This document shows, piece after piece, positions 3,675 to 56,330 of a stretch of 64,000 bases of DNA. The stretch lies in the IMG/VR virus record IMGVR_UViG_3300043416_000076, positions 915-64,914 of that record; one strand, 5' to 3'. Within the stretch, counting starts at the first letter, position 1. Each line of letters starts with the position of its first letter. Made by a program: the position numbers and the translations under genes. The DNA is from a virus (taxonomy: Duplodnaviria; Caudoviricetes). The notes under the pieces were generated by a model, which saw only the letters and a list, made by a program, of their open reading frames with translations, did not search any database and was not told where the DNA came from.

Positions 3675-4330
3675 TGGCTACGTTTGATCCCAAGACGCTT
3701 GATTTCCGCAACCCGTTAGCTCCAAACCTACCGCTTGCTCCGATGGAGTATGAGCGTCAGTTTCAGGATCAGTTTGAAAACATTCTGCGTTTGTACTTTA
3801 ATCAACTTGATAATGCCTTTGGCTCTTTACTTGGCCCGACCGGCGGTAAGTATCTAAAGTTCCCTTACGGGGCATTCTCTAGCGATCAAGACCAAACCGC
3901 TGTTGCAAACACAGCTACGCTGATGACGTTAAACACTACAGATTTCTCCAATGATGTGTCAATCAGTTCGTCCAAGATTACTGTAGCAAACTCAGGTATA
4001 TACAACCTTCAGTTCAGCGTTCAATTAGAGAACGCAGACAACGCGCCGCAAGACACTTTTATTTGGCTTAAGCAAAACGGCGTAGACATTGTTGGCTCTA
4101 CTGGCAAAGTGGGTATGCCTGCTAGAAAAGGTGTTGGCGACCCATTTCATTCTATTTTTGGGTGGAATTACTTTGTAAGCATGACGGCAGGGCAGTACAT
4201 AGAAATTTACTGGTCAACAACCAACGCAAATGTCACCATCCAATTTTACCCAGCCTCTGGAACCCCAACCAAGCCGTCTACCCAGTCTGTCGTAGCCACA
4301 ATGTCATTTGTCTCAAGGCTTCCATCATGA
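3674..4330 (+). CDS. Virion structural protein
   Basis: Coupled to the tail hub gene; beta-rich C-terminal domain. Confidence 0.6.
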   Translation: MATFDPKTLDFRNPLAPNLPLAPMEYERQFQDQFENILRLYFNQLDNAFGSLLGPTGGKYLKFPYGAFSSDQDQTAVANTATLMTLNTTDFSNDVSISSSKITVANSGIYNLQFSVQLENADNAPQDTFIWLKQNGVDIVGSTGKVGMPARKGVGDPFHSIFGWNYFVSMTAGQYIEIYWSTTNANVTIQFYPASGTPTKPSTQSVVATMSFVSRLPS

Positions 4331-4336
4331 TACTAT
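4308..4336 (+). promoter_or_regulatory. sigma70-like promoter for the ejection-protein operon
   Basis: TTGTCT-17 bp-TACTAT with an extended -10 TG, 28 nt upstream of ATG 4365. Confidence 0.5.
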
Positions 4337-4364
4337 CAACCACCCCTGTTTAAATGAGGCAAAA

Positions 4365-6223: not shown

Positions 6224-8425
6224 ATGTGTAGTCCAGCACCATCAGCACCATCATCAACAACACAGACAACTGATCTGCCGGATTGGGCTAAGCCGTATGC
6301 CAAAGAAACATTGGCAAAGACTTCTGCGCTTACCGACATCAATCAAAACCCGTATCAGAAATACGGTGGCGAGCGGATTGCAGGCTTTCAGCCTATGCAG
6401 GAGCAAGCGTTTAAAACCATGAGTGGTATGGACGCAAGCCCAGAGGGCTTTGCTAAAGGCATTGGCTCTTACATGTCGCCGTACATGCAGAATGTGGTTG
6501 ATATTCAAAAGCGCGAAGCTGGTCGTCAATCTGATATTGCTGGTACTCAGCAACAGGCGCAGGCTACCCAAGCGGGCGCTTTTGGCGGTGGTAGAGATGC
6601 AATCATGCGGGCAGAACGTGAGCGCAATCTTGGTCAGCAGATGAATGACATTCAGGCCAGAGGCTCCCAAGCAGCCTTTGATCAAGCGTCAGGTCAATTC
6701 CGTCAGGGTATTACCCAACAATCAGGGCTTGCTCAAATGCAGGGGCAGATGGGTCAACAACAGCAGCAGCAAGAGCAACGCCCGCTGGATATGGCCTATC
6801 AGGACTTCCAGAACCAACAAAACTACCCGTATAAACAGTTGGGCTTTATGTCTGACATGGTCAATAGGCTCCCGCTTGGTCAGAAATCTACAGCGCAGGT
6901 ATACGACCAAGGCCCGGGCATGGTGCAGACTTTGGCGGGCTTGGGTGGCGCGGCCTACGGCTTCGGTAAATCGGGGATGTTTGGCGCAGAGGGCGGTTTG
7001 ATGGAGTCGTATGCTGACGGCGGGGTAACAAGCGACCAAAACGTAGAAAGTATTCTTGGCAGGCTCAGTGACCAGCAGTTGGCGCAAGCTAAAGAAACAG
7101 CGTTAAACCGCCGCGATATTGAACAAGCACAAATGATTGATGCAGAAATGGCTGAGCGTGCTTCGATCCGTGGTGGTCTGGGCGGCGCGTTTAACCAAAT
7201 CCCCATAGAGCAGCAAGAAGAAATGATGGCTGGCGGCGGTATTGTTGCGTTTGCTCCGGGCGGAGCTGCGAAAAGTAAAGACACCTATGGAAACAGGTTT
7301 GAACAAAGTTTGACCGACTTGAAAGCAATGTCTAATAAAGCCCCGGCAGAACAGACTCCAGAACAAAGAGATGAAGCTATTTCCGCCCGTATTCCAATGT
7401 TGGAAAAACGCTATGGCCCTGACATTACTCAACCATATTTAGAAGAAACTAAATCTAAACGGGCTGGGTTAACAGATCAAATGGAAAAAGACAAAGGTCT
7501 TGCTTTCGCTATGGCAAGTTTGGGAATGCTGAGCCGTAAAAGAACTCCGGGTGAAAGCCAGCGGAATCAACTTTTTTCTGGGCTGGGTGAAGCTGGGCAA
7601 ACATTTATCAGTGAAGTTGGCCGACTTAAGAAAGAAAACCGTGAGGTCGATGACAAGCTGCGTCAGTCTGAAATTTTGTTGGCTACCGCTCAACAATCTC
7701 GTAAGGAAGGCTTGATTAACAAAGCAGATGCTGAAGAAACCCGTGCACAAGATTTGAAGAGAGATGCGTTCAAAACTAATATTGATGTGCAAGGAAAAGT
7801 TGCCCAGCTTACAAGCGGTTTAGCGCAACAAGAAATGCAGGGTGCGAACGCGCTGAAAGTCGCGGGGATCACCGCCGCGGTTCAACGCGAAACAATGAAT
7901 AAGCCCGGCGAGTTGGAACGCATAATGGCCGACGTAGAAGCTATTCGCTCAGGCAAGAAATCATTTGCGGGTAAAACAGGCGAAGAAGGCGCTCAAGCTT
8001 ATAAAGAAACTCTTAGCCAAGTTGGTGAAGCACGGGGTGGCTATAGGTACTTGGGGCCAGATAAATCACCAGAACAAGCCGCAGCAATTAGAAAGCAGGC
8101 TTTGGATGACGACCGAGTGAAGGACGCTGGGCTTGCAATAATTGCGGCTGGTAGCGACCCCGTCAAAAAGCAAGCTGCACGAGAAAATTACGACCGTATT
8201 TTGCAGAGCGTTGAGCAGGGACTTAGAGATCAGATACAAGCTGGTAGGACGCAACGTGGCCCTGCTGATGCGACTACCGCACCGGCTAAATCTGCTGCGG
8301 CGGTGGGTAGAACTCCACCTCCAGCGGCTGTAGACATGCTGAAATCAGATCCTTCGGGCAAAAACAGGAAAGATTTTGACGAGATATTTGGGCCGGGAGC
8401 AGCAGCCAAAGCATTGGGGCAATAA
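6224..8425 (+). CDS. Internal virion / DNA ejection protein (Q/A-rich)
   Basis: 733 aa; AGAFGGGR motif, Q-rich helices; precedes the giant ejection protein. Confidence 0.7.
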   Translation: MCSPAPSAPSSTTQTTDLPDWAKPYAKETLAKTSALTDINQNPYQKYGGERIAGFQPMQEQAFKTMSGMDASPEGFAKGIGSYMSPYMQNVVDIQKREAGRQSDIAGTQQQAQATQAGAFGGGRDAIMRAERERNLGQQMNDIQARGSQAAFDQASGQFRQGITQQSGLAQMQGQMGQQQQQQEQRPLDMAYQDFQNQQNYPYKQLGFMSDMVNRLPLGQKSTAQVYDQGPGMVQTLAGLGGAAYGFGKSGMFGAEGGLMESYADGGVTSDQNVESILGRLSDQQLAQAKETALNRRDIEQAQMIDAEMAERASIRGGLGGAFNQIPIEQQEEMMAGGGIVAFAPGGAAKSKDTYGNRFEQSLTDLKAMSNKAPAEQTPEQRDEAISARIPMLEKRYGPDITQPYLEETKSKRAGLTDQMEKDKGLAFAMASLGMLSRKRTPGESQRNQLFSGLGEAGQTFISEVGRLKKENREVDDKLRQSEILLATAQQSRKEGLINKADAEETRAQDLKRDAFKTNIDVQGKVAQLTSGLAQQEMQGANALKVAGITAAVQRETMNKPGELERIMADVEAIRSGKKSFAGKTGEEGAQAYKETLSQVGEARGGYRYLGPDKSPEQAAAIRKQALDDDRVKDAGLAIIAAGSDPVKKQAARENYDRILQSVEQGLRDQIQAGRTQRGPADATTAPAKSAAAVGRTPPPAAVDMLKSDPSGKNRKDFDEIFGPGAAAKALGQ

Positions 8426-41424: not shown

Positions 41425-42126
41425 ATGACCCTGCATATCACGCCTGACAAAACAATTCCGTTTCCGGACAACCTAGAACCGGAAGCGGGCGCGACGCTCT
41501 TCGAAAACATGCAGATCGCGTCGAACACGGCGGAAGTTCTCAAAGGGCTAGGCGCTCATGTCGATGACGACCCAGAGGCTCAACTCAAAGCGGACAACGT
41601 ATTCAACGACTTCTCCGAATTGGCCAAGCGCCAGTACGAAGAAGCGATGCTCCCCAAACGTGGCCCCGGTCGCCCACGCAAAGATCCCAACGCTCCACCA
41701 CCCCCGAGTAAGACACCGTCGTTGATGTACAGCTTGCCTGTAGCAGAACGAATCGGCACGATGCTCAGGGAGTACAACAACCCAATCGTTGCAGATGCCG
41801 CCGAACTTAGGTTAGTGGTCACCAACAAGCTGCTCGACCTAGCTTCATGCGGAGACCCCAAGATTGAGATCAAGGCGACCGAGATGCTGGGCAAGATAAG
41901 CGACGTGGGCCTCTTCTCCGAGAAGACGGAGATCACGGTTACGTACAAGTCGGTGTCTGATATAGACAACGCCATCAAAGATAAAATCAGGAAGATGCTT
42001 CTGGCCCACGGCGGGGAAATCACCACGGTGGACTTTGATCTGGACAGAGAGTTTGGAACACCCCCAGAGCTAGAAATGGTCGAGGTTGTGCAGGATCCGC
42101 CCAGAGAAGAACCCGATGCGCTCTAA
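41425..42126 (+). CDS. terS: Putative terminase small subunit
   Basis: Immediately upstream of and overlapping terL; AT-hook-like RGPGRPRK; helical C-terminus (IKATEMLGK). Confidence 0.6.
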   Translation: MTLHITPDKTIPFPDNLEPEAGATLFENMQIASNTAEVLKGLGAHVDDDPEAQLKADNVFNDFSELAKRQYEEAMLPKRGPGRPRKDPNAPPPPSKTPSLMYSLPVAERIGTMLREYNNPIVADAAELRLVVTNKLLDLASCGDPKIEIKATEMLGKISDVGLFSEKTEITVTYKSVSDIDNAIKDKIRKMLLAHGGEITTVDFDLDREFGTPPELEMVEVVQDPPREEPDAL

Positions 42127-43657
42127 CGTACAGTCAAGTACGCTTGACATGGAGCTGAATGCGTTGCTGGCGCAACTGGATAAGCTACCTGACCACCATA
42201 AAGCACAGATTCTGGAAGACCTAACCCGCCGCGAGGAGTTTTTAGAGAAAGATAAGGCCCGTAATACCTTCATGGGGTTTGTACATAAGGTCTGGCCAGA
42301 CTTCATAGGCGGGCGACACCACAAAATAATGGCCAAAGCGTTCGAGCGGGTGGTGAATGGGGAGTGCAAACGCCTGATTATCAACATGCCACCCCGCCAT
42401 ACGAAGTCGGAGTTCGCTTCCTATCTCCTTCCAGCATGGTTCTTGGGCAAATATCCGCACAAAAAGGTCATACAAAGCTCGAACACGTCCGAATTAGCGG
42501 TCGGCTTCGGTCGAAAAGTACGAAATCTTGTGGATTTGGACACTTACAGGGAGCTTTTCCCCGGTTTAGAGCTTCGGGCGGACTCAAAAGCGGCTGGCCG
42601 GTGGAATACAAGCAAAAACGGGGACTATTTTGCGATCGGTGTGGGTGGTACGGTCACCGGAAAAGGTGCTGACCTCTTAATTATCGACGATCCGCACTCT
42701 GAACAGGAGGCGGCGCTTGCCGCAAGCAACCCGGACGTGTTTGACAAGGTAACCGAGTGGTATACGTCCGGCCCACGGCAGCGTTTGCAGCCGGGCGGGG
42801 CGATCGTGATCGTTATGACACGTTGGGCGATGCGGGATTTGACTGGTCAGGTGCTCAAAGCGGCGGCGCAGCGGGGTGGGGAACAGTGGGAAGTTATTGA
42901 GTTCCCGGCCATTCTACCTTCGGGCAAACTTCTGTGGCCAGAATTCTGGAGTATGGAAGAGATGGAAGCGCTCCGCGAGGAATTGCCCAACAGTAAGTGG
43001 CAAGCGCAGTACCAGCAGAATCCAGTGGGTAACGAGTCAGCTATTGTGAAGCGGGATTGGTGGAAATGGTGGGAACCCGAGCGGCCACCGGTGTGTGAGT
43101 ACATTTTGCAGACGTGGGACACCGCGTTTGAGAAGAACAACCGGGCTGACTACTCCGCAGGAACGACTTGGGGGGTGTTCAAGAATGACGAGGACAACGG
43201 CCAGTCAAACATCATCTTGCTCAACACGTACAAGAAGCGGGTTGAGTACCCAGACTTAAAACGTGACGTGCTTGAGGAGTACAGAGAGTACGAACCGGAT
43301 GGGATTTTGATTGAGAAGAAGGCGTCTGGTGCGCCACTCATCTACGACCTGCGGGCGATGGGGATCCCGGTGCAGGAGTACACGCCAAGTAAGGGTCAGG
43401 ATAAAGTCGCCCGTTTGAACTCTGTCTCAGACATAATTGCGTCGGGTAAGGTATGGGTGCCCCGCACGCGCTGGGCAGAAGAGTTAGTAGATGAGATTGC
43501 AGAGTTCCCGTCGGGCGAGCATGATGACTTGGTTGACGCGACGACTCTTGCGCTCATGAGATTTAGACAAGGTGGGTTTCTCCGCTTACCAAGCGATGAA
43601 CCCGAAGAGACTCGGTATTTTAGAAGCCGCAGTAAAGAGCGGTTTTACACGGTGTAA
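42116..43657 (+). CDS. terL: Terminase large subunit
   Basis: INMPPRHTKS Walker A variant, IIDDP Walker B, YQQNP coupling motif, WDTA and DDLVD nuclease motifs. Confidence 0.95.
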   Translation: MRSNVQSSTLDMELNALLAQLDKLPDHHKAQILEDLTRREEFLEKDKARNTFMGFVHKVWPDFIGGRHHKIMAKAFERVVNGECKRLIINMPPRHTKSEFASYLLPAWFLGKYPHKKVIQSSNTSELAVGFGRKVRNLVDLDTYRELFPGLELRADSKAAGRWNTSKNGDYFAIGVGGTVTGKGADLLIIDDPHSEQEAALAASNPDVFDKVTEWYTSGPRQRLQPGGAIVIVMTRWAMRDLTGQVLKAAAQRGGEQWEVIEFPAILPSGKLLWPEFWSMEEMEALREELPNSKWQAQYQQNPVGNESAIVKRDWWKWWEPERPPVCEYILQTWDTAFEKNNRADYSAGTTWGVFKNDEDNGQSNIILLNTYKKRVEYPDLKRDVLEEYREYEPDGILIEKKASGAPLIYDLRAMGIPVQEYTPSKGQDKVARLNSVSDIIASGKVWVPRTRWAEELVDEIAEFPSGEHDDLVDATTLALMRFRQGGFLRLPSDEPEETRYFRSRSKERFYTV

Positions 43658-43666
43658 GGACACAAA

Positions 43667-46162
43667 ATGGCAACAAGTTCAATGGACAAAGCACTTTATC
43701 AAGCCCCTATGGGCCTTTCCGACTTGGCCGAACAGCCTGACTTGGAGATTGAGATTGAAGATCCGGAGTCAGTAAGCATCCACGCGGAAGGCTTAGATAT
43801 TGACCTGAAGCCGCAGAAAGAAACAGCGGATGACTTTGATGCCAACCTTGCTGACTATATGGAAGATAAGGAGTTGTCGCTTCTAAGTTCTGATCTTATT
43901 GACGACTTTGATAAAGACACAATGGATCGTAAAGATTGGATTAGAACGTACATTGAGGGTTTGAAATTGCTGGGTTTGAAGTACGAGGAGCGTACAGAGC
44001 CTTGGCAGGGAGCCTGCGGAGTGTTTCATCCTATGTTGACAGAGTCTGTGGTTAGGTTTCAGTCAGAAGGAATCACTGAAACATTCCCTGCTATGGGGCC
44101 AGTAAAGACTAAGATTGTTGGCAAAGATACCCCGGAGTCTGAAGAGGCGGCAGCCCGCGTGCAGGAGGACATGAATTATCAGTTGACAGAAGTCATGACT
44201 GAGTATCGTCCTGAGCATGAAAAGATGCTGTGGAACCTACCGTTGGCGGGTTCGGCGTTTAAGAAGGTGTACTTTGATCCAGCCAAAGGTCGCCAAGCGG
44301 CAGTTTTTATCCCCGCTGAAGACATAGTTGTACCTTATGGCGCGACTAGCTTGGAGACAGCCGAGCGCGTCACGCACGTCATGCGGAAGACAAAAAACGA
44401 GGTTCTTCGGCTGCAAGATGCTGGGTTTTATAGCGACGTGGACTTAGGTGACCCCGGCTATGAGTTAGATGATATTGAGAAGCAGAAGGCCGAAGAAGAC
44501 GGCATGTCCGCTACGCAAGATGAGCGGTTCCGTATTCTGGAGATGCACGTTGATTTAGACTTACCCGGGTTTGAACATAAGAAAAAAGGCAAGCCCACGG
44601 GCATTGCCCTACCTTACGTAGTTACCATAGAGAAATCTACCAACACTATATTAGCTATTCGGAGAAATTGGTATGAAGACGACAAGCTCCACCTCAAACG
44701 CCAGCATTTCGTCCACTACCAATACATCCCCGGTTTTGGTTTCTATGGTTACGGTCTTATCCACCTCATCGGTGGGTACGCGAAAAGCGCTACGATGCTC
44801 ATCCGACAGTTGGTCGATGCTGGGACGTTATCTAACTTACCCGGAGGTCTTAAATCTCGCGGCCTGCGCATTAAGGGAGACGACACCCCCATCCAGCCCG
44901 GAGAGTTCCGAGACGTAGATGTTCCAAGCGGCTCAATCAGAGACAACATCTTACCGTTACCGTATAAGGAGCCAAGTCAGGTTCTGTTTGCGTTGTTCCA
45001 AAACATAGTAGAAGAAGGCCGGGCGTTTGCCTCCAGTGGGGACATGAATGTGTCCGATATGTCAGCGCAAGCACCGGTCGGTACAACCTTGGCAATTTTG
45101 GAAAGAACTCTTAAAGTGATGGGCGCTATCCAAGCCCGTATGCACTTCACTATGAAGCAAGAGTTCAAGTTGCTCAAGGTAATCATTGCAGACTACGCCC
45201 CCGAGGACTATGACTATGAGCCAGAAGAAGGTAGCCGCGCTGCCCGTAAGTCTGACTACGACATGGTGGACGTAATTCCTGTAAGCGACCCCAACGCCGC
45301 GACTATGGCACAAAAGATTGTGCAATATCAGGCAGTTATGCAGTTGGCTCAACAAGCGCCGCAGCTATATGACATGGCTTTTTTACACCGCCAGATGATC
45401 GAAGTTTTGGGGGTTAAAAACGCCAGCAAGCTAGTCAAAACAGAAGATGATGCAATACCTGTTGACCCCACATCAGAAAACCAAGCGCTTCTGACTATGA
45501 AGCCCGTTAAAGCGTTTATGGAGCAGAACCACGAAGCCCATATTCAAGTTCATACCGCTGCTATACAGGATCCAAAGATTCAACAGTTAATGCAGGCTAA
45601 TCCAATGGCGCAGCAAATTATGGCGGCAGCAATGGCGCACATAAACGAGCACATTGCGTTTGAGTATCGCAAGCAGATAGAAATGGCAATTGGTACGCCG
45701 CTGCCTACAGAGGAACAGAACAAACAAGTTTCTCCGGAGTTAGCTGATCGGATTGCCATGATGACTGCGCAAGCAGCACAACAACTTCTACAGCAGAACC
45801 AGCAACAAGCTAAACAGCAACAAGCCCAGCAACAAATGCAAGATCCAATCGTTCAGATGCAGATGCAAGAACTTCAGATTAAGCAGGGCGAGTTGCAGTT
45901 GAAACAGCAGAAACAAGCCACGGACGCTGCGGCCAAGGCGGATCAAATCAGGATTGAAGAGTCCCGGATTGCGGTTCAAAAGGAAATTGCCGTTATGCAA
46001 GTTGCAGCAAACTCTGCCGCAAAACTTGATCAAATGAACAAGAAAGCTGAATCTGACGGGGCGCGTATGGGTATTGATATCGCAAAACACAAGGCACAAA
46101 TGCAGCAACAACGGTTTCAAACCATGCAGAACAGACAGCAACCAAAAAAGGACAGTAAATGA
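43667..46162 (+). CDS. Portal protein (P22-like, long Q-rich C-terminal barrel)
   Basis: Follows terL; GFYG.GL, Q-rich C-terminal helix. Confidence 0.85.
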   Translation: MATSSMDKALYQAPMGLSDLAEQPDLEIEIEDPESVSIHAEGLDIDLKPQKETADDFDANLADYMEDKELSLLSSDLIDDFDKDTMDRKDWIRTYIEGLKLLGLKYEERTEPWQGACGVFHPMLTESVVRFQSEGITETFPAMGPVKTKIVGKDTPESEEAAARVQEDMNYQLTEVMTEYRPEHEKMLWNLPLAGSAFKKVYFDPAKGRQAAVFIPAEDIVVPYGATSLETAERVTHVMRKTKNEVLRLQDAGFYSDVDLGDPGYELDDIEKQKAEEDGMSATQDERFRILEMHVDLDLPGFEHKKKGKPTGIALPYVVTIEKSTNTILAIRRNWYEDDKLHLKRQHFVHYQYIPGFGFYGYGLIHLIGGYAKSATMLIRQLVDAGTLSNLPGGLKSRGLRIKGDDTPIQPGEFRDVDVPSGSIRDNILPLPYKEPSQVLFALFQNIVEEGRAFASSGDMNVSDMSAQAPVGTTLAILERTLKVMGAIQARMHFTMKQEFKLLKVIIADYAPEDYDYEPEEGSRAARKSDYDMVDVIPVSDPNAATMAQKIVQYQAVMQLAQQAPQLYDMAFLHRQMIEVLGVKNASKLVKTEDDAIPVDPTSENQALLTMKPVKAFMEQNHEAHIQVHTAAIQDPKIQQLMQANPMAQQIMAAAMAHINEHIAFEYRKQIEMAIGTPLPTEEQNKQVSPELADRIAMMTAQAAQQLLQQNQQQAKQQQAQQQMQDPIVQMQMQELQIKQGELQLKQQKQATDAAAKADQIRIEESRIAVQKEIAVMQVAANSAAKLDQMNKKAESDGARMGIDIAKHKAQMQQQRFQTMQNRQQPKKDSK

Positions 46163-46353
46163 ACCAGCAAGCGCTTTCATACCTCCTCAAGGAAATTGAC
46201 AGGTTACGCGAGGATCAGTCCGTGTTTTTGAACGGCGGTGGCGCAAAGGATTTTGCCGAGTACCGGCATGTTTGCGGAGTTATTCGGGGTCTAACTCATG
46301 CAGATCAACTTGTCAGAGACCTTGCGCAAAAACTGGAGTATTCCGATGACTGA
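46159..46353 (+). CDS. Conserved small head-module protein
   Basis: EYRHVCGVIRGL motif; ATGA overlap with the portal gene. Confidence 0.65.
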   Translation: MNQQALSYLLKEIDRLREDQSVFLNGGGAKDFAEYRHVCGVIRGLTHADQLVRDLAQKLEYSDD

Positions 46354-46756
46354 ATTTGATGTCGCTGCTGTCGATTTGACAGGTATTCTTAACACGAGTG
46401 CCGAAGATAAAGCCAAGCAGTTGCCCGACCCTAAAACTTTCCGACTTCTGTGCGTTGTTCCTGAAGCGATGGAAGAGTTTGCGGATAGTGAAATTGGTAT
46501 TGTGAAGTCAAGTCAATCTATGTACTACGAAGAAGTACTGACCCCAGTCTTGTTCGTAATCAAAGTTGGCCCCGACGCTTACAAAGATACAACCCGGTTC
46601 CCCAGTGGGCCGTCGTGCAAGGAAGGTGACTTTGTCATCGTCCGCCCCAATTCAGGCACCCGCCTGAAGATTCATGGCCGTGAATTCCGCATCATCAACG
46701 ATGACTCGGTTGAAGCAGTTGTGGAAGACCCGCGCGGTATCACCCGTGCTGCATAA
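46346..46756 (+). CDS. groES: GroES-like co-chaperonin
   Basis: GIV mobile loop, VIKVGP, CKEGDFV, EFRIINDDSVEAVV. Confidence 0.75.
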   Translation: MTEFDVAAVDLTGILNTSAEDKAKQLPDPKTFRLLCVVPEAMEEFADSEIGIVKSSQSMYYEEVLTPVLFVIKVGPDAYKDTTRFPSGPSCKEGDFVIVRPNSGTRLKIHGREFRIINDDSVEAVVEDPRGITRAA

Positions 46757-46766
46757 GGAGTAACAC

Positions 46767-47753
46767 ATGGCAACAAAGTTTGACGATACCTACGAGTTCC
46801 CCGACGAGGTAGAAGCTAAGAAAGCTGCTGCTGAGGAGAAGTTTGAGATTGAAATTGAGGACGATACGCCTCCCGCTGATCGTGGGCGCAAGCCTATGAG
46901 AGAGCCAGTGGAAGACCCAACTGACGAAGAGTTGGCCACCTACGACGAGAAGGTTCAGGCGCGGATGAAGAAATTCACCCGTGGCTATCACGACGAACGA
47001 CGGGCAAAAGAACAGGCCGTACGGGAACGTGAGGCGACTGAAACCTATGCGAAACAGATCATTGAAGAAAATAAACGACTTCAACAACAGCTTTCTAGCG
47101 GAAGCAAGGTACTAATTGAGCAGTCGCAATCCAGCGCACAGCTTGAGCTTGACGCCGCCAAGAAAAAATACAAGGAAGCCTACGAGACCGCCGATGTGGA
47201 TGCGTTGGCCGACTCTCAAGCAGAAATTGCCAAAGCCACCCTACGTATGGACAGAGCTTCAGGGATGAAGCCCATTGAGGTAGATGAGCTGGGGTATGCA
47301 CCAGCGCAGCCACAAAAATCTAACGTCACCCCCCGAACCCAAAAGTGGCTAGACCGCAACGAATGGTTTGGCCCGGACGATGAGATGACTATGACTGCAA
47401 TGGGTATTGACAGACGTTTGCAGAAAGAGTATGGTGCGGACTATGTAGGTACTGAAGAGTACTTTCAAACCATTGATAAAACAATGCGCAAAAGATTTCC
47501 TGAGCACTTTGAGAGTGATCAGAGCTACGAGGAAGACGAATCGCCTCCTAAGAAAAGAACGTCAGAACCGGATGAGGATGATGAACCCCCACGCCGTGCA
47601 ACAAGAATTACTTCGCCTGTAGCCCCGGCTGCACGAAGTACACCGCCTAATCGCATTCGCTTAAAAGCATCTGAGGTTGAGACCGCGCGTCGCCTTCAGG
47701 TGCCCATTGAAGAATATGCTAAACAGGTTGCTTTACTTAGAAGAGGTGCTTAA
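46767..47753 (+). CDS. Capsid scaffolding protein
   Basis: Acidic coiled coil, N.WFG motif, C-terminal ARRLQVPIEEYAK; lies upstream of the capsid genes. Confidence 0.75.
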   Translation: MATKFDDTYEFPDEVEAKKAAAEEKFEIEIEDDTPPADRGRKPMREPVEDPTDEELATYDEKVQARMKKFTRGYHDERRAKEQAVREREATETYAKQIIEENKRLQQQLSSGSKVLIEQSQSSAQLELDAAKKKYKEAYETADVDALADSQAEIAKATLRMDRASGMKPIEVDELGYAPAQPQKSNVTPRTQKWLDRNEWFGPDDEMTMTAMGIDRRLQKEYGADYVGTEEYFQTIDKTMRKRFPEHFESDQSYEEDESPPKKRTSEPDEDDEPPRRATRITSPVAPAARSTPPNRIRLKASEVETARRLQVPIEEYAKQVALLRRGA

Positions 47754-47755
47754 TC

Positions 47756-48226
47756 ATGGAAAATATCGAGTCAAAAAAACCGCAAAATCGTATGGATCGC
47801 GCATTGGATACTAGGGCTACCGCTTACAGACCAACGTCTTGGCAAGCCCCTGAAACCCTGCCTCAACCAGATGATCGACCCGGTTGGAAACATCGTTATG
47901 TTCGTTTAAGCGCCAATGGTCAATCTGATCCATCAAATATTGCTTCTAAGTTACGTGAGGGGTATGAACCCTGCAAAGCAGAGGAATATCCTGAACTCAT
48001 GATGCACGCCGCCATTGAAGGTCGCTTTAAAGGTGGTATTGAAGTAGGTGGTTTGTTACTCTGCCGTATTCCAGCCGAGTTTATGCAGCAACGTGATGCT
48101 CACTTTGCAAAACTAAACAAGGCACAAATGGATTCTGTAGACAACACCTACATGAAAGACAACGATCCACGAATGCAAAAATTTGCGGAGCGTTCGTCAA
48201 AAGTAACATTCGGCCCCGGTTCTTAA
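47756..48226 (+). CDS. Conserved head-module protein
   Basis: HRYVR, KLREGYEP, GGLLLCRIP. Confidence 0.65.
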   Translation: MENIESKKPQNRMDRALDTRATAYRPTSWQAPETLPQPDDRPGWKHRYVRLSANGQSDPSNIASKLREGYEPCKAEEYPELMMHAAIEGRFKGGIEVGGLLLCRIPAEFMQQRDAHFAKLNKAQMDSVDNTYMKDNDPRMQKFAERSSKVTFGPGS

Positions 48227-49085: not shown

Positions 49086-49997
49086 ATGGCTATTTCACGT
49101 GCACAACTACTGAAGGAACTTCTTCCCGGACTGAACGCTTTGTTCGGTATGGAATACGCTCGCTACGGTGAGCAACACAAAGAGATCTACGAAACAGAGA
49201 CCTCTGAGCGTTCCTTTGAAGAAGAAACCAAGCTGTCTGGCTTCTCTGCCGCACCTGTCAAAAACGAGGGTTCTGCCATCGCTTATGACAATGCTCAAGA
49301 GGCATGGACTACCCGCTACAACCACGAAACCATTGCTTTGGGTTTCTCAATCACTGAAGAAGCGATTGAAGATAACTTGTACGACAGCTTGTCTGCTCGC
49401 TACACCAAAGGTCTGGCTCGTGCTATGGCGTATACCAAGCAGGTTAAAGCAGCCGCTACTCTCAACAACGGTTTCTCCGCCGCTTATGTCGGTGGTGATG
49501 GTGTTGCTTTGTTTAGCACTGCTCACCCCTTGGTTAATGGTGGAACCAACTCCAACCGTCCTTCCACTGCTGCTGACTTGAATGAAACTTCGTTGGAAAA
49601 CGCTGTTATTCAGATCGCTGCATGGACAGACGAGCGTGGTTTGTTGATCGCCGCCAAGCCCAAGAAGCTGATTGTTCCCCCTGCATTGCAGTTCGTGGCT
49701 ACCCGCCTGTTGGAAACCAGCCTGCGTGTTGGCACTACCGACAACGACATCAATGCTCTGAAGAACAACGGTTCTATCCCTGAAGGCTACACCATTAACA
49801 ACTACTTGACCGACACAAACGGCTGGTATTTGACAACTGATGTGCCTAACGGTCTGAAGCACTTCGTTCGTTCACCCCTTGCTAACAGCATGGATGGTGA
49901 CTTTGATACCGGCAACGTCCGTTACAAAGCCCGCGAGCGTTACAGCTTCGGTTGGTCTGATCCGTTGGGAATGTTTGGTTCTCCCGGTACGTCCTAA
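49086..49997 (+). CDS. Major capsid protein
   Basis: MAISRAQLLKELLPGLNALFG...; optimised codons; strong RBS; followed by a terminator. Confidence 0.88.
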   Translation: MAISRAQLLKELLPGLNALFGMEYARYGEQHKEIYETETSERSFEEETKLSGFSAAPVKNEGSAIAYDNAQEAWTTRYNHETIALGFSITEEAIEDNLYDSLSARYTKGLARAMAYTKQVKAAATLNNGFSAAYVGGDGVALFSTAHPLVNGGTNSNRPSTAADLNETSLENAVIQIAAWTDERGLLIAAKPKKLIVPPALQFVATRLLETSLRVGTTDNDINALKNNGSIPEGYTINNYLTDTNGWYLTTDVPNGLKHFVRSPLANSMDGDFDTGNVRYKARERYSFGWSDPLGMFGSPGTS

Positions 49998-50007
49998 GAA
50001 GACTGAG

Positions 50008-50035
50008 AAGGGGGCCTTGTGCCCCCTTTTCTTTT
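50008..50035 (+). terminator. Intrinsic terminator after the capsid gene; its loop also reads as a -35 (TTGTGC-17 bp-TATATT at 50017-50045)
   Basis: AAGGGGGC-CTTGT-GCCCCCTT followed by TTCTTTT. Confidence 0.8.
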
Positions 50036-50133: not shown

Positions 50134-50631
50134 ATGGGATTCGCAACTCACCTTGGCCCTTGGTTGTTGGGTACAGTTAAAAACACAACTGGCACTACCG
50201 CAGGCACTATCCGCAATATGGGCGCGACTATTGTTGCCCAGACTTACACGGCCCCCGCTTCTGTTATTTTGGCAAGCCCCGCAGCACAACAGATGTTTGT
50301 ACTCCCTGCTGGCGCTAAGATTGTTCGTTTTGGCCTCGAAGTTAATGTTGCCCTGACTGGCGCGTCTAACTGCGGCGTTACCATCGGTAGCAGCGGCACT
50401 GCCAACTTGTACATGGCTACGGTCAACACCGGCACTTCAGCGGTTCAGACTTCTCCAGCTACGATTGCAGCGGCTACTTCAGGTCTGTATGACAGCATTG
50501 GCACAACTGATGCAATCATTTACGGTACTTTTACCGCAGCTACTGCTGACGCTACTGCTGGTACGGTTACTGTCACTGTTGAGTACATTGTTCGTGACTC
50601 TGACGGTTCTGCCAATCCTTCACAGGCTTAA
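50134..50631 (+). CDS. Virion structural protein
   Basis: T/A/G-rich beta protein; RBS GGAG. Confidence 0.7.
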   Translation: MGFATHLGPWLLGTVKNTTGTTAGTIRNMGATIVAQTYTAPASVILASPAAQQMFVLPAGAKIVRFGLEVNVALTGASNCGVTIGSSGTANLYMATVNTGTSAVQTSPATIAAATSGLYDSIGTTDAIIYGTFTAATADATAGTVTVTVEYIVRDSDGSANPSQA

Positions 50632-50668: not shown

Positions 50669-50953
50669 TTGATTATGATGCAGACAGATGTAAAAAGCGG
50701 CGCGGCAGCAGCTAATGCAACCACCACCATTTTTGCTGGCCCAGCCCGTATTAAAGGTATATCCATCAGTTATTCAACAGGCGCAACGGTTGTTCTGAAT
50801 GATGGCACAGCCGGTACAGCTATGTTTTCTTTTACCGCGCCAGCGGCTGCGGGGGCTATCTATATGGTATTCCCCGGAGAGGGAATTAGATGTAGCACCA
50901 ATATTTCTGCTGTGGTATCTGCGACAACAACCGCAGTGGTGTTCTATGGCTAA
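50669..50953 (+). CDS. Small virion structural protein
   Basis: GPARIKG...PGEGIRC; RBS AGGAG. Confidence 0.7.
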   Translation: MIMMQTDVKSGAAAANATTTIFAGPARIKGISISYSTGATVVLNDGTAGTAMFSFTAPAAAGAIYMVFPGEGIRCSTNISAVVSATTTAVVFYG

Positions 50954-51200
50954 GAAGACTCCCTCCCTTGCAATTGGTCGTGGTGAAAAACTACCCGCTT
51001 CCAAGGGGGCGGGCTTGACTGCCAAAGGTCGTGCCAAGTACAACGCAGCAACAGGAAGCAACTTGAAGGCTCCACAGCCACAGGGTGGCAAGCGCAAGGA
51101 TTCGTTCTGCGCCCGTATGTCTGGTATGCCCGGCCCGATGAAAGATGAAAAAGGCAAGCCTACCCGCAAGGCAGCTTCTTTAGCAAGATGGAAGTGTTGA
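50946..51200 (+). CDS. Small basic protein (SFCARM family)
   Basis: ATG 50946; GLTAKGR..YN...GSNLK, SFCARM, LARWKC. Confidence 0.7.
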   Translation: MAKKTPSLAIGRGEKLPASKGAGLTAKGRAKYNAATGSNLKAPQPQGGKRKDSFCARMSGMPGPMKDEKGKPTRKAASLARWKC

Positions 51201-51207
51201 GGTAATC

Positions 51208-51510
51208 ATGGCTGATAACGAAAAATTCTTTACAGGCAAAGATGCCAATGGCGCTCCTCTTTACACATATCAAAATAACGCTATGTCAAAAGAAGATTTT
51301 GACAAGCAAAAAGCACAATCAGCAAATGAGATGGATGCTTTTAAAAATCAAAAAGATGATTTTGATTTACAGTTTGACGATATGAAAGCAAAACTCCTTA
51401 CGCTTAAAAAACCGCTTAAAAAAGCAAAAGGCGGAGCAATAAAAAGCTCGGCCTCTAGCCGCGCAGATGGCTGTGCTACCAAAGGCAAAACAAAAGGTAG
51501 GTTTGTTTAA
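51208..51510 (+). CDS. Small late protein with C-terminal RADGCATKGKTKG tag
   Basis: Ends ASSRADGCATKGKTKGRFV. Confidence 0.7.
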   Translation: MADNEKFFTGKDANGAPLYTYQNNAMSKEDFDKQKAQSANEMDAFKNQKDDFDLQFDDMKAKLLTLKKPLKKAKGGAIKSSASSRADGCATKGKTKGRFV

Positions 51511-52062
51511 ATGGCAAATTTTAAAACTCGTTCAGACGATGAGATTTTTTGGTCAAACAAGCCCGGAAACCGTGGAAAGACTTACCCCGGTGACGAGATA
51601 GCTCGTCAAGAATATGACCGAGATAAAGCGCGGGGGGAAAACAACCTCAGTACTGTGCGCAACTTCTTGTTTGGTAAGAGCGACGCAAGAAAGCGTGATG
51701 CTAATGATGCAATTGACAGGCGTATAGCAGAAAAAGGTCAGATTCCAATAGAGCCAGCAGGGCCTATGACAAAGAAAAGAACCCTGTCAGACAGAATTCT
51801 GGATAGTTTTCCTATGGCTACCATAAAAAATAACGCTGCTAAAGCCGGTTTTATTGAGCCACCTGTTTCTCTTAATGAAGACTCTGCAAGTAAAGAAAAT
51901 GAACGCAACAAAACAGACTTAATGCAAAAGCTGCTTGCTAGAAAGTCTGGGCTAAAAAAAGGTGGCGCGGTAAAAACCAAAAAAATGGCTTCTGGCGGCA
52001 CAGCCTCTAGCCGCGCAGACGGATGCGCAACAAAAGGCAAAACAAAAGGCAGGATTGTATGA
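51511..52062 (+). CDS. Late protein with C-terminal RADGCATKGKTKG tag
   Basis: Ends ASSRADGCATKGKTKGRIV. Confidence 0.7.
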   Translation: MANFKTRSDDEIFWSNKPGNRGKTYPGDEIARQEYDRDKARGENNLSTVRNFLFGKSDARKRDANDAIDRRIAEKGQIPIEPAGPMTKKRTLSDRILDSFPMATIKNNAAKAGFIEPPVSLNEDSASKENERNKTDLMQKLLARKSGLKKGGAVKTKKMASGGTASSRADGCATKGKTKGRIV

Positions 52063-52262
52063 ACGAACAAAATCAAGAAACTCTGAAGTATGCCCTTGAT
52101 GGTGCGTCCCTTCTCACTGTCATAGGAACACTTGTGGAATTCTTACCCGCCTTATCTGCAATTCTCAGTATTGTTTGGGTGGCAATCCGCATCTACGAAA
52201 CCGAGACTATGAAGAAATTGTTGAATCGCAAGAAAGACGACGATGCCAGCAACAAGCCCTAA
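52059..52262 (+). CDS. Small membrane protein (holin-like topology)
   Basis: ATG 52059; hydrophobic core, WVAIRIYET, basic/acidic tail. Confidence 0.65.
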   Translation: MNEQNQETLKYALDGASLLTVIGTLVEFLPALSAILSIVWVAIRIYETETMKKLLNRKKDDDASNKP

Positions 52263-52692
52263 ACAAAAAAAATTCATGGACGCTGCGGCGCACAACAAAG
52301 CGTTTGCCACACAAGCGGGCATCCCGCAGAAGGTGGCAAAGGACTTCAGTGGGGCCAGCAAAGGCATGAAGTTTGGGAAGGATCGTTCAGTCGCAACCCG
52401 TGCTGATCGTCAGACAATCAACAATCCTAAAACCAATCAAGGTAAACAGGAACTTTTTAAAGAAGGTGGAACTATGGCAACGAAAATGAACCCCGGTTTT
52501 ATGGCAATGATAGCTAAGAAAAAAGCTGGAGCCAAGTCAGAGATGCCTTCTAAGATGGGCAAACCTGTGATGAAAAAAGGCATGGACACTGCCAAAGACG
52601 GCATGAAGATGGCTAAAGGTGGTGGTGTCGAAGCCAAGGGTAAAACCAAAGGCAAGATGATCAAGATGAACAAGGGCGGCAAAGCCTGCTAA
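52243..52692 (+). CDS. Lys/Met-rich basic protein with a degenerate tag
   Basis: SPKQKKFM.AAAHN..FA...GIP; ends AKGKTKGKMIKMNKGGKAC. Confidence 0.7.
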   Translation: MPATSPKQKKFMDAAAHNKAFATQAGIPQKVAKDFSGASKGMKFGKDRSVATRADRQTINNPKTNQGKQELFKEGGTMATKMNPGFMAMIAKKKAGAKSEMPSKMGKPVMKKGMDTAKDGMKMAKGGGVEAKGKTKGKMIKMNKGGKAC

Positions 52693-52702
52693 GGAGTAAA
52701 TC

Positions 52703-53482
52703 ATGGCAAAAAGAAATAATTTAGCTGCTTTGGCCGCGCTAGCCGGGTTAGGCTACGTACTTACAAATCAATCTCGTAATAAAGTGGATTTGACCGAGAA
52801 GGATTCAAATCCTGATCGTAAAGCTCGACCAGACTCGACTGAAACCCGGGAAGCGCCTTTTAAGGCTACAAACGAGTCTGCGTACACCGGCACTACCAAA
52901 AACGACTCTAACACCGCTAAAAACATTGGTTTTGGGGGCGGGGATAACAGCGATAAAAATCTTAAACGTGTAGCCCCGGCTGAACCTATTCCAGTTAAAC
53001 CCCCTAAATTAGATGTGGTTACGAACAGTGCTTTGCCACCTGCCGAACCTAAACCTTCTGACAAGCCTCTGTATAAGCAAAACGTCACAATTGCTGGGGA
53101 TAAAAAGCGCACTGAAGGCAATCAACCAATGCCTTCTTTGAGAGCGGTTGAAGCAAAAGTGGCTTCAAATAAAACTGACGCATTGCGTAACGCCTCCCGC
53201 AAAACCGCTGCCTCAAACACCCCCAAAAGCAAAACCCCACCAGCATCGACCTCCACGGCTTTGAAAACACCTGATGCGCCTAAAAGTGAGACTACAAACG
53301 GTAAGTTTGAAATGCCAATTACTAAGTTCTTTAAAGGCATTCGTGAGCGCGGAGATGAAGATTTAGCCACACGAGGTCTGAAACGTGGCGGCACAGTCAA
53401 GATGGCTTCCGGTGGCATGGCTGCTTCTCGTCGTGGCGATGGTATTGCTCAGCGGGGTAAGACTCGCGGAAAGATGTGCTAA
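52703..53482 (+). CDS. Late protein with N-terminal hydrophobic anchor and tag variant
   Basis: LAALAALAGLGYVL; ends ASRRGDGIAQRGKTRGKMC. Confidence 0.7.
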   Translation: MAKRNNLAALAALAGLGYVLTNQSRNKVDLTEKDSNPDRKARPDSTETREAPFKATNESAYTGTTKNDSNTAKNIGFGGGDNSDKNLKRVAPAEPIPVKPPKLDVVTNSALPPAEPKPSDKPLYKQNVTIAGDKKRTEGNQPMPSLRAVEAKVASNKTDALRNASRKTAASNTPKSKTPPASTSTALKTPDAPKSETTNGKFEMPITKFFKGIRERGDEDLATRGLKRGGTVKMASGGMAASRRGDGIAQRGKTRGKMC

Positions 53483-53485
53483 ATC

Positions 53486-54040
53486 ATGGCAAAAATTGGT
53501 AGACGACCACTGGATGATGAGCAGCTTGAGGGCGGCGGCGCGGGCGCGGGTATCAGCGGAACCAAGTACAGCAAGATGCCTTCTTTGAGAGGTAGCGCCA
53601 GCACAATAGGCGACCTCAGAAAAATCAATCAGGACACCTCTAACTTACGCGGTAACGCCAAGAAGGTGACTGAAGATGCCCAAGATCGCGCAGCGGCCCG
53701 AACAGGCGTGCGTGCAGCAGGTGCTGGCGCTGCCGCAGCAGGTATAAAAACCGCCGTCAGTGATGACTCTGAGGATAAAAAAGACGATAAAACTCCTTCT
53801 CGTGCTGGCATGGGCGAGATTATTTCCGGTAAAGGTATGGCTGACGGCGGCAAGGTTCCAGTTCAGCAATTGCCGTACATGGGCGAAAAACCTGAGTCTC
53901 GCATTCCACCTCCTGCGCAACGCAGTAAGCCCAATTCAGAAGTGAAAATTCCTAGCAAGAACTACAGCGGCGGCGGTACTGCTTCCAGCCGTGCAGATGG
54001 CTGCGCAACCAAGGGCAAAACCAAGGGTCGATTTGTATGA
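53486..54040 (+). CDS. Late protein with C-terminal RADGCATKGKTKG tag
   Basis: Ends ASSRADGCATKGKTKGRFV. Confidence 0.7.
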   Translation: MAKIGRRPLDDEQLEGGGAGAGISGTKYSKMPSLRGSASTIGDLRKINQDTSNLRGNAKKVTEDAQDRAAARTGVRAAGAGAAAAGIKTAVSDDSEDKKDDKTPSRAGMGEIISGKGMADGGKVPVQQLPYMGEKPESRIPPPAQRSKPNSEVKIPSKNYSGGGTASSRADGCATKGKTKGRFV

Positions 54041-54327
54041 TGTCTTCTCGCGGCATGGGCAACATTAACCCGTCAAAGATGCCGGGGAAGAAGGTCGTTC
54101 GTCGTAAAGACAAGCCGCAGGATGTGGACATGTACGCTGAAGGCGGCAAAGCAAAATCCAAAGTAAATGAGGCGGGCAATTACACCAAGCCTGATTTGCG
54201 CAAACGTATTTTCAACAGCGTCAAAGCTGCGGCAATCGTAGGTACAGGCGCAGGGCAATGGAGCGCTAGAAAAGCGCAGGTCATGGCTAAACGCTACAAA
54301 GCCGCAGGCGGCGGGTATCGTGATTAA
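54037..54327 (+). CDS. Small basic protein
   Basis: NYTKP.LRKR...GQWSARKAQ...YK.AGGGY. Confidence 0.7.
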   Translation: MMSSRGMGNINPSKMPGKKVVRRKDKPQDVDMYAEGGKAKSKVNEAGNYTKPDLRKRIFNSVKAAAIVGTGAGQWSARKAQVMAKRYKAAGGGYRD

Positions 54328-54556
54328 AAAGCCCCAGCAATCCCTAAAAAACTGGGGCGAACAAGATTGGACAACTAAAAGTGGTAAAAAATCTTCTGAC
54401 ACTGGTGAGCGATACCTTCCAAAAGCTGCGATCAAAAGTCTCAGCCCTGCTGAGTACGCTGCGACAACACGTGCAAAACGTGCTGGCAAAGCTAAAGGGA
54501 AACAATTCGTGAAGCAACCCCCCAAGGTAGCAAAGAAAACGGCAGGATTTAGATAA
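54320..54556 (+). CDS. Small basic protein
   Basis: Q.SLK.W..Q.W.TKSGK...GERYLP. Confidence 0.7.
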   Translation: MIKKPQQSLKNWGEQDWTTKSGKKSSDTGERYLPKAAIKSLSPAEYAATTRAKRAGKAKGKQFVKQPPKVAKKTAGFR

Positions 54557-55482
54557 TGGCAAACACTTCCGGCGCAGTAAGTTTTAACCTAGACCTCACC
54601 GAACTGGTGGAGGAGGCGTTTGAACGCGCCGGGGGTGAGCTTCGCACGGGCTATGACCTCCGTACAGCCAGACGCAGTTTAAACATCATGTTTGCCGACT
54701 GGGCCAACCGAGGCATCAACCTGTGGACGATAGAGACAGGGATAATTGATCTGGTGCAGGGTCAAAATACTTATCCGTTGCCCAACGACACGATTGACCT
54801 GCTGGAACACGTCATCCGCACCGGCGGTAATTTAGCCTCAACACAGGCTGACTTGACCATTACGCGCATTAGCGTTTCTACCTACGCAACCATACCAAAC
54901 AAGATTCAGCAAGCCAGACCTATTCAGGTATGGATTCAGCGCTTTAATGGTCAAACATCACCGACAGATATAACCCTAGATGGGGCAATCACCAGCACCG
55001 ACACAACAATTACTTTGGACTCTGTGGTGGGGCTTCCCGCCGCTGGGTTCATCAAGATCGACAGCGAGATCATCAACTACGGATACATTGATGGCAATGT
55101 CCTGAACAACTGCTTCCGCGCCCAACAAAACACTACAGCAGCGAGCCACGCTGACAATGCCGCTGTTTATTGGGAGCAAGTCCCAGCAGTCACCGTTTGG
55201 CCCACCCCAGACAATGCGCAGACCTACCAACTTGTGTATTGGCGCTTACGTCGTACCCAAGACGCGGGCGGCGGTGTCAATATTATGGACGTGCCGTTCC
55301 GCTTCATTCCTTGCATGGCTGCTGGCCTGTCGTATTACATTGCGGGAAAGATTCCGACCGGTATGGAAAGAATCCCGATGCTAAAAGCGCAGTATGACGA
55401 GGCTTGGGAACTAGCAGCATACGAAGATCATGAGAAAGCTGCACTGCGTCTTGTCCCCCGTCAGACCTACATTGGGAGGTAA
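54556..55482 (+). CDS. Head-tail connector / neck protein (gp4-like)
   Basis: ARRSLN....WANRGINLW; VTVWPTPD; RFIPCMAAGLSYY. Confidence 0.65.
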   Translation: MANTSGAVSFNLDLTELVEEAFERAGGELRTGYDLRTARRSLNIMFADWANRGINLWTIETGIIDLVQGQNTYPLPNDTIDLLEHVIRTGGNLASTQADLTITRISVSTYATIPNKIQQARPIQVWIQRFNGQTSPTDITLDGAITSTDTTITLDSVVGLPAAGFIKIDSEIINYGYIDGNVLNNCFRAQQNTTAASHADNAAVYWEQVPAVTVWPTPDNAQTYQLVYWRLRRTQDAGGGVNIMDVPFRFIPCMAAGLSYYIAGKIPTGMERIPMLKAQYDEAWELAAYEDHEKAALRLVPRQTYIGR

Positions 55483-55874: not shown

Positions 55875-55884
55875 GGAGTCAGTG

Positions 55885-56064
55885 ATGGACAAGAAAGATT
55901 TAAAACAAGACAAGAAAATGATCGCGGGTGCTGTGCATAAGCATGAGAAAAAGTTGCACCCCGGTAAGCCTATGACTAAATTAGCCAAGGGCGGTGTGAC
56001 CACTGACCAAATGAAAGCTGTTGGTCGTAACATGGCACGCGCAAACAATCAAAGGAGCGGTTAA
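55885..56064 (+). CDS. Small basic protein
   Basis: LAKGG motif; RBS AGGAG. Confidence 0.6.
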   Translation: MDKKDLKQDKKMIAGAVHKHEKKLHPGKPMTKLAKGGVTTDQMKAVGRNMARANNQRSG

Positions 56065-56330
56065 TGGCTAAATTCAGCGACAAACGAATGGGCAAAGAAG
56101 TGGGTAATGCCGCTGTCTATGCTGCACCACACACCATGACTGGCAAAGCTGTTGGCATTGAACCCAACCCCGGCAAAATGCCTAACCGCAGCAAACTTGA
56201 TACGCTTGATGTGAGTATTGGCGGCATCAGCAAATCTGCTGGCGACGAAAAGATTAAAACTGATGGCATCAAAATGCGCGGTACTGGCGCAGCCACCAAA
56301 GGCTTGATGTCTAGAGGCCCAATGGCATGA
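56064..56330 (+). CDS. Small basic protein
   Basis: Ends GIKMRGTGAATKG....GPMA. Confidence 0.65.
   Translation: MAKFSDKRMGKEVGNAAVYAAPHTMTGKAVGIEPNPGKMPNRSKLDTLDVSIGGISKSAGDEKIKTDGIKMRGTGAATKGLMSRGPMA

Follow-up and report, generated by a model that had tools for sequence, protein, structure and literature searches.

To our knowledge, no part of the tailed-phage virion is less well understood than its internal and ejected head proteins, and T4 is the only phage with a defined targeting signal for them. Small basic virion proteins, rich in lysine, glycine and alanine, that travel with the genome include gp6.7 and gp7.3 of T7 and the adenovirus core proteins pVII and mu, the latter two being cleaved from precursors at (M/I/L)xGG. 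Encapsulins use cargo-loading peptides, in which a conserved C-terminal peptide is carried by unrelated proteins in the setting of an HK97-fold shell, the peptide being hydrophobic (GSL-type) and the cargo enzymatic. In T4, a short portable terminal peptide suffices for the encapsidation of IPI–III, according to a published account (PMC7697877; Mullaney and Black 1996 cited there). The same account describes this signal as N-terminal, about 10 residues long, bound to the scaffolding core and removed by the gp21 protease (PMC7697877). Here we describe a C-terminal peptide module, or tag, shared by five adjacent late genes (51208–54040) in a 64,000-nucleotide stretch of DNA (the window) that is nearly the entire 64,914-bp IMG/VR virus record IMGVR_UViG_3300043416_000076, a record with direct terminal repeats. 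The module is discrete, portable and restricted to one clade of podoviruses, and we tentatively take it for a docking peptide on polycationic proteins inside the virion.

The module follows the pattern [MYFL]xxGG-x(2-6)-[AS]SxR[AG]DG[CIV]Ax[KR]GKT[KR]Gx-hydrophobic and is at times extended by ..KMxxGGxxC. The five open reading frames (ORFs) that carry it in the window, with lengths in amino acids (aa), are:

51208–51510, plus strand: tagged protein 1, 100 aa, net charge +6, ending ASSRADGCATKGKTKGR[F/I]V; tag DNA 51451–51507.
51511–52062, plus strand: tagged protein 2, 183 aa, net charge +15, ending ASSRADGCATKGKTKGR[F/I]V; tag DNA 52003–52059, with LKKGG and MASGG upstream.
52243–52692, plus strand: tagged protein 3 (orf149), 149 aa, net charge +24, with a DUF3008-like N-terminus (phrog_16759, 1.9e-13), ending AKGKTKGKMIKMNKGGKAC; long tag variant ..MAKGGGVEAKGKTKGKMIKMNKGGKAC.
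52703–53482, plus strand: tagged protein 4, 259 aa, net charge +21, with an N-terminal hydrophobic Ala/Leu/Gly helix, ending ASRRGDGIAQRGKTRGKMC; tag variant RRGDGIAQRGKTRGKMC (53423–53479).
53486–54040, plus strand: tagged protein 5 (orf184), 184 aa, net charge +11, predicted disordered, ending ASSRADGCATKGKTKGR[F/I]V; tag DNA 53981–54037.

A first-pass annotation, made without database searches, had noticed that three genes end in one 19-mer and that a fourth and a fifth gene carry variant endings, and ORF and codon comparison bears out these statements exactly. Tag copies 1 and 3 encode the same peptide with 10 of 19 codons different, every difference being synonymous, and copy 2 differs from copies 1 and 3 at 8 and 12 codons, respectively, with one amino-acid change. 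Because the peptide is the same despite this synonymous divergence, purifying selection acts on the peptide and not on the DNA. The longest run of DNA identical between any two window tags is 17 nucleotides, which together with the synonymous divergence excludes recent gene conversion; the proposal that 60 bp of tag homology would serve cargo swapping therefore fails in this genome. Each of the five tags is preceded by xxGG, as had also been noted, and each of the five proteins has a single Cys, every time within the tag. The claimed dissimilarity of the upstream parts holds at the level of sequence (no mutual BLAST similarity at E<1e-4) but not in kind, all five N-terminal parts being basic and hydrophilic.

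Two degenerate tag patterns were used to fetch 230 IMG/VR loci, and 274 tagged ORFs from related loci were aligned on the GKT[KR]G core. The aligned positions read D (93 per cent), G (100 per cent), C, I or V (62, 29 and 9 per cent), A (90 per cent), any residue, and K or R (100 per cent), then G, K and T (each 100 per cent), K or R (100 per cent), G (100 per cent) and finally x-[M/F/I]-[V/I/C/L], with the ..KMxxGGxxC extension present in one third of the ORFs. The upstream GG is found in 267 of the 274 tails, 200 of which have M, Y, F or L three residues ahead of it. The module is about 25 residues long (22–30), and C-termini with two or three tandem units are common, the [MYFL]xxGG joint recurring between the units; as many as 5 profile stretches occur within one protein. 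Its position is terminal. A region-restricted search returned 1,139 proteins of 101–322 aa, and each of the best 120 matches had the tail as its very end; together with the recurrence of the tail in about 230 IMG/VR loci, this rules out a chance resemblance. A tag profile and a catalogue of N-termini had been proposed as a check in the first-pass annotation, and the profile, built from 100 tails, matched 8,041 representatives of 50%-identity protein clusters at E<=1e-3 and 204 at E<=1e-10, the tail being no more than 20 residues from the end in 146 of 149 representatives. A Cys occurs in the tail in 86 per cent of the locus ORFs, and 142 of 150 database representatives have one among their final 30 residues, although Cys makes up only 0.4 per cent of carrier bodies.

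The same domains occur with and without the module. Homologues of DUF6321 are tagged in 35 cases and untagged in 64, the tag being joined exactly after the domain's own ..RAWNC end, and members of the 'HKHE..AKGG' family have either the tag or a different tail after the same AKGG (4 tagged and 15 untagged, one being a chance match of the regular expression). BLAST comparison sorted the N-terminal parts of 271 tagged ORFs into at least 69 clusters, and short blocks are shuffled like beads among members of one such cluster. The module is thus a discrete, portable, terminal unit on unrelated N-termini, as had been claimed.

The further claim that the N-termini represent interchangeable functional cargo does not survive, as the carriers are one compositional class of short, predicted disordered polycations. 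Their median length is 126 aa, with an isoelectric point of 10.2, a net charge of +15 and a grand average of hydropathy of -0.85; they are rich in K, A, G, S, M and P, and 99.7 per cent of carrier bodies are net basic. AlphaFold2 modeling of orf184 from a 29-row alignment gave a mean predicted local distance difference test score (pLDDT) of 51 and a predicted template modeling score (pTM) of 0.13, tag included. A word search with the orf184 tail found no tagged proteins of 323–2000 aa; the 150 best profile matches span 44 to 490 aa, and the longest of them are of the same low-complexity type, none being enzyme-like. The family of 52703–53482 has a hydrophobic N-terminal helix of Ala, Leu and Gly, as ejection proteins often do.

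The tag is confined to one podovirus clade. The window's structural genes are present in 228 of the 230 tag-selected loci, with capsid proteins 77–99 per cent identical to that of the window. When loci were instead sampled by capsid protein, 31 of 34 had one to five tagged ORFs between the capsid and adaptor genes, and in the remaining three the tag was degenerate (GKTKC or GHTKG, for instance). From the sister clade around Pelagibacter phage HTVC023P (capsid protein 60–69 per cent identical), 32 loci extended 3 kb or more downstream, and none of them had the tag. Only three contigs from 185,579 bacterial genomes contained the tag; all belong to metagenome-assembled genomes, and one of them, at 61.7 kb, is about the length of a phage genome.

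Megablast and tblastn searches with the array turned up nothing beyond noise among cultured phages, and a cultured carrier was reached via the capsid protein. Planktothrix phage Pag-Yong1 encodes one tagged protein of 309 aa, ending ..GRDGCAKRGRTKGRFI; Pag-Yong1, Pra-JY27 and Synechococcus phage MinM2, with the same capsid-protein match, are the only cultured carriers found (tagged protein accession UMO75986.1). GenBank OL906435, OQ594354 and PP438419 are described as three cyanophages of three different cyanobacterial hosts. All three are 65,014 bp long and agree in capsid-protein match, and they probably represent a single phage, whose host may be a heterotroph growing in non-axenic cultures. 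The tag is missing from the 19 kb surrounding the HTVC023P capsid gene and from the equivalent regions of Roseobacter phage CRP-901, Caulobacter phage RW and Alcaligenes phage QDWS535, and DSL-LC04 has degenerate tag variants only. The HTVC023P-type pelagiphages and their relatives (PMC9599517; GenBank MN698239, OQ401623, OR003939) resemble the window in head–neck gene order and in their GroES-like and DUF6321 genes, but their capsid proteins are only 55–65 per cent identical to the window's and they have no tag. By the source fields of GenBank, the described carriers are freshwater phages and the untagged relatives marine ones.

The tag is a peptide motif family without prior description. No model in Pfam, PHROG or NCBIfam covers it, the only matches to models being those of the orf149 N-terminus (phrog_16759) and the neighboring DUF6321 gene; the tag profile had no matches among PDB sequences, a literature search with motif strings retrieved nothing relevant, and a protein atlas search returned viral hypothetical clusters only. 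Several known signals were considered and rejected. The GxxxxGKT spacing fits a P-loop (Walker A) NTPase, but the protein ends 4–6 residues past the T in a region predicted to be disordered, and since no helix can follow the loop the module is not a P-loop fold. A sorting signal of the GlyGly-CTERM or PEP-CTERM type is excluded by the lack of a hydrophobic helix after the motif, and scaffold mimicry by the absence of the motif from the scaffold C-terminus and from the remaining window proteins.

The late genes of the window run in the order terminase, portal, GroES-like, coiled-coil scaffold-like, two unknown head proteins, capsid, cement-like, the array, and an SU10-type adaptor, with more neck and tail genes, ejection-type proteins and a 2,294-aa polyvalent protein 3' of the adaptor; from this gene set the phage is a podovirus. 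The features that bound and accompany the five tagged genes are:

42086–43657: terminase.
43667–46162: portal.
46767–47753: coiled-coil scaffold-like protein.
49086–49997, plus strand: major capsid protein, 303 aa, HK97 fold, Mu gpT-like (PF25209, 3.8e-15; PF10124; phrog_371); upstream boundary of the array.
50005–50031, plus strand: strong intrinsic terminator just 3' of the capsid gene (11-bp GC-rich stem and T-run).
50134–50631: cement-like protein.
50946–51200, plus strand: DUF6321 protein, 84 aa, net charge +16, ending ..ARWKC (PF19846, 6.9e-23); untagged in the window.
52059–52262, plus strand (ORF listed from 52023, likely start 52059): small untagged protein inside the array with one hydrophobic helix; homologues in 26 tag-bearing loci.
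54037–54327, plus strand: basic 96-aa protein, net charge +15 (phrog_17747, 8.3e-26), whose family opens M.ASRGMGAI.PSKMPKGKK (an N-terminal half-motif of the tag), followed by YAEGG.
54320–54556, plus strand: basic 78-aa protein, net charge +15, untagged and specific to the tag-bearing clade (phrog_14910, 2.1e-35).
54556–55482, plus strand: head–tail adaptor of SU10 type (PF24175); downstream boundary of the main array.
55882–56064, plus strand: basic 60-aa 'HKHE...LAKGG' protein, untagged in the window; relatives are tagged after the same AKGG joint.
56064–56330, plus strand: basic 88-aa protein with a paralogous C-terminal variant, ..IKMRGTGAATKGLMSRGPMA (about 56277–56327); tail nearly invariant in 114 distinct homologues.

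The location given in the first-pass annotation, between capsid and neck genes among small basic proteins, is therefore correct. No other terminator-like site lies on the plus strand through 56500, and for this reason the array is co-transcribed with the cement and neck genes. Further small basic proteins adjoin the tagged ones, and the roughly ten members of this suite in the window sum to a charge of +143 per set. The suite is nearly specific to the tagged clade, the other head and neck genes all being common to both clades. Two more small basic families (those of 56064–56330 and 54037–54327) have near-invariant terminal peptides of their own that are related to the tag; the 88-aa family, ending ..RGTG[AC]ATKG[VL]M[AS]RGPMA, keeps RGTG[AC]ATKG and has no GKT.

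There is some reason to think, with rather less than even confidence, that the module is a terminal peptide by which polycationic proteins inside the virion dock or are anchored. The genes would constitute a clade-specific suite of small, strongly basic, disordered late proteins, which would most likely sit in the DNA-filled head and leave with the DNA in the manner of the T4 internal proteins or T7 gp6.7 and gp7.3, serving as counter-ions or as ejected proteins. The terminal module might then act as a short linear motif that folds only on binding and gives all carriers one common handle on one conserved partner, so that polycationic bodies could be gained, lost and exchanged without incorporation having to evolve anew each time. 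The capsid interior would be the first-choice partner, since no other protein is conserved to a comparable degree: the capsid protein is the most conserved of the head module, with a median identity of 85–88 per cent as against 38 per cent for the scaffold and 65 per cent for the portal. The placement of the array behind the capsid terminator together with cement and adaptor genes is consistent with this docking role, as are the xxGG joint that the tagged proteins share with two presumptive ejection proteins and the N-terminus of orf149, whose first 40 residues also match the N-termini of phrog_22033 and phrog_25121, both annotated as virion structural proteins.

Several points weigh against this reading. 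Late operons contain non-structural genes too. Tandem copies of the motif and the N-terminal half-motifs would suit a multivalent nucleic-acid binder equally well, and the presence of several tag variants in one genome makes a single, tightly co-evolving receptor site less than obvious. Twenty positions discriminate the capsid proteins of the two clades, tagged and untagged, in no clear pattern, and net charge does not differ (-11.8 and -12.7, respectively). A disulfide bond between the tag Cys and the capsid protein is excluded because the latter has no Cys; the conserved tag Cys may form cross-links among the small proteins or bridge metal. A more ambitious form of the proposal, which we regard as unlikely, is that the module is a universal encapsidation signal for an HK97-fold phage capsid, the counterpart of encapsulin cargo-loading peptides, with which one aquatic clade evolved exchangeable protein counter-ions for the DNA in its heads, possibly cross-linked via the single conserved Cys.

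The main rival partner to the capsid protein is DNA itself. It is conceivable, though on balance we think it somewhat unlikely, that the module is a DNA or phosphate anchor in which the Gly-rich G-x4-G-K-T loop and flanking Lys and Arg residues clamp the backbone, the carriers coating the phage DNA as small histone-like counter-ions with no need of a protein receptor and tandem copies raising avidity. The net basic bodies, the duplication of the motif to as many as five stretches per protein, the invariance of G, K, T and G in GxxxxGKT spacing and the clade specificity of the whole +143 suite would all follow naturally from such an anchor. Yet the non-basic positions (D at 93 per cent, A at 90 per cent, T at 100 per cent and Cys at about 86–95 per cent) are conserved far beyond what binding of charge needs, docking peptides typically occupy just such a strictly terminal position, the paralogous 88-aa family has lost the GKT while keeping RGTG[AC]ATKG, and the end of the protein 4–6 residues after the loop denies it a P-loop fold. 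Action outside the virion is an improbable alternative, in which the carriers would work in the infected cell on the host nucleoid, on ribosomes or on phage DNA before packaging, or else form a cationic adhesive brush outside the capsid. Small basic phage proteins with host targets exist, and the hydrophobic N-terminal helix of 52703–53482 would be compatible with such roles; against them stand the constant position of the genes in the head–neck operon, from capsid and cement to adaptor, across hundreds of genomes, the joint motif common to carriers and ejection proteins, and the near absence of the tag from bacterial genomes.

The joint itself raises the question of processing. It is possible, but in our judgment quite unlikely, that [MYFL]xxGG is a cleavage site, such that the tag is cut off during assembly as a disposable targeting peptide or a cationic peptide of about 25 residues is the real product of many precursors. 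The joint is found almost invariably at the module border and between tandem units, and it is enriched in each tagged window ORF (2–3 observed against 0.2–0.3 expected). It is likewise more frequent than expected by shuffling in two presumptive ejection proteins, 4308–5756 (6 observed, 2.0 expected) and 6224–8425 (4 observed, 1.3 expected), in which forms of the type [MYFL]AxGG are clustered (MAHGG, MASGG, MALGG and LASGG; YADGG, MAGGG and FAPGG). The tape measure protein pb2 of T5 is cleaved on the C-terminal side of R1127 (PMC10038345), where the sequence in the T5 record is FVPR|AEGGMM, so the cut falls directly ahead of AEGG in the same short [bulky]-A-x-G-G joint that precedes the tags and occurs in the window ejection proteins. 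The T5 case differs in being a single site in a 1,219-aa tail protein with an unknown protease. Cleavage is opposed by the lack of a recognizable prohead protease in the window's head module and by a capsid protein without a delta domain. A conserved 156-aa head protein (47756–48226) folds confidently (pLDDT 79), with a beta sheet and one long helix; it was considered as a hidden prohead protease, an identity that is unsupported as no fold match, and no solved protease, was found among solved structures.

A docking peptide on internal proteins would invite comparison with the systems named at the outset. The likeness to the T4 internal proteins lies in small proteins that are proposed to be packed with the DNA, a portable terminal peptide and a variable set of carriers. 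Set against the N-terminal T4 signal of about 10 residues (PMC7697877), the window module is C-terminal, 22–30 residues long, unrelated in sequence and often repeated, and no prohead protease is recognized in the head module. As with encapsulins, unrelated proteins share one conserved C-terminal peptide and an HK97-fold shell is present, but this peptide is basic and rich in Gly and its carriers consist of disordered polycations, with the shell as a candidate binding partner. The basic proteins of T7 and adenovirus are not expected to resemble the carriers in sequence and have no shared terminal tag, and the hydrophobic residue of the window joint is spaced one position off that of the adenovirus site. 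By analogy, then, the module would resemble the T4 targeting sequence or the encapsulin peptide in its working, and it fails the defining features of both: the former because position, sequence and protease differ, the latter because peptide chemistry and type of cargo differ. It is best filed under terminal peptides recruiting internal virion proteins, and as an undescribed motif family. The packaging into the head, co-ejection and cleavage at GG envisaged in the first-pass annotation are inferences.

The family is very large (about 8,000 clusters at 50% identity) and unannotated, in one of the most abundant aquatic podovirus lineages. If the module is an encapsidation or DNA-anchoring signal, it would explain how internal proteins are recruited and exchanged and would provide a portable loading tag, and if it should prove a universal encapsidation signal, the 25-mer would be available as it stands for loading foreign proteins into phage heads. 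Even if the carriers are ordinary non-structural basic proteins, a family model would group thousands of hypothetical proteins. Experiments have a handle in the one cultured phage with a single tagged gene, and in a 25-residue peptide that can be fused, deleted or synthesized.

Some minor features of these genomes are also of note. The first 40–50 or so residues of orf149 (52243–52401; DUF3008-like, MP..S.KQ..FM) occur as a free-standing gene of 56–58 aa in phiKZ-like jumbo phages of Pseudomonas and Serratia, with no functional note attached to those genes. Within the head module, a GroES-like co-chaperonin gene (46298–46756) lies between the portal and the scaffold and is kept in all relatives examined (Pag-Yong1, HTVC023P, DSL-LC04, CRP-901, Caulobacter RW and Alcaligenes QDWS535). 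The string [LF]EIEIED[PD] is found near the N-termini of the portal (43745–43762) and of the scaffold-like protein (46845–46862), its sole two occurrences in six frames, and alternating acidic motifs similar to [LF]EIEIED are present in untagged relatives as well (HTVC023P portal, CRP-901 scaffold), for which reason the string was set aside as a candidate receptor for the tag; it may be a shared docking element in head assembly. Finally, the slot between the capsid and adaptor genes is an insertion hot spot in relatives (L255:10023–10730, L255:12787–15786, L291:4570–7656 and L291:8817–9011), where a GIY-YIG-like homing endonuclease, a 64-aa protein made up largely of His and proteins roughly 1,000 aa in length are encoded.

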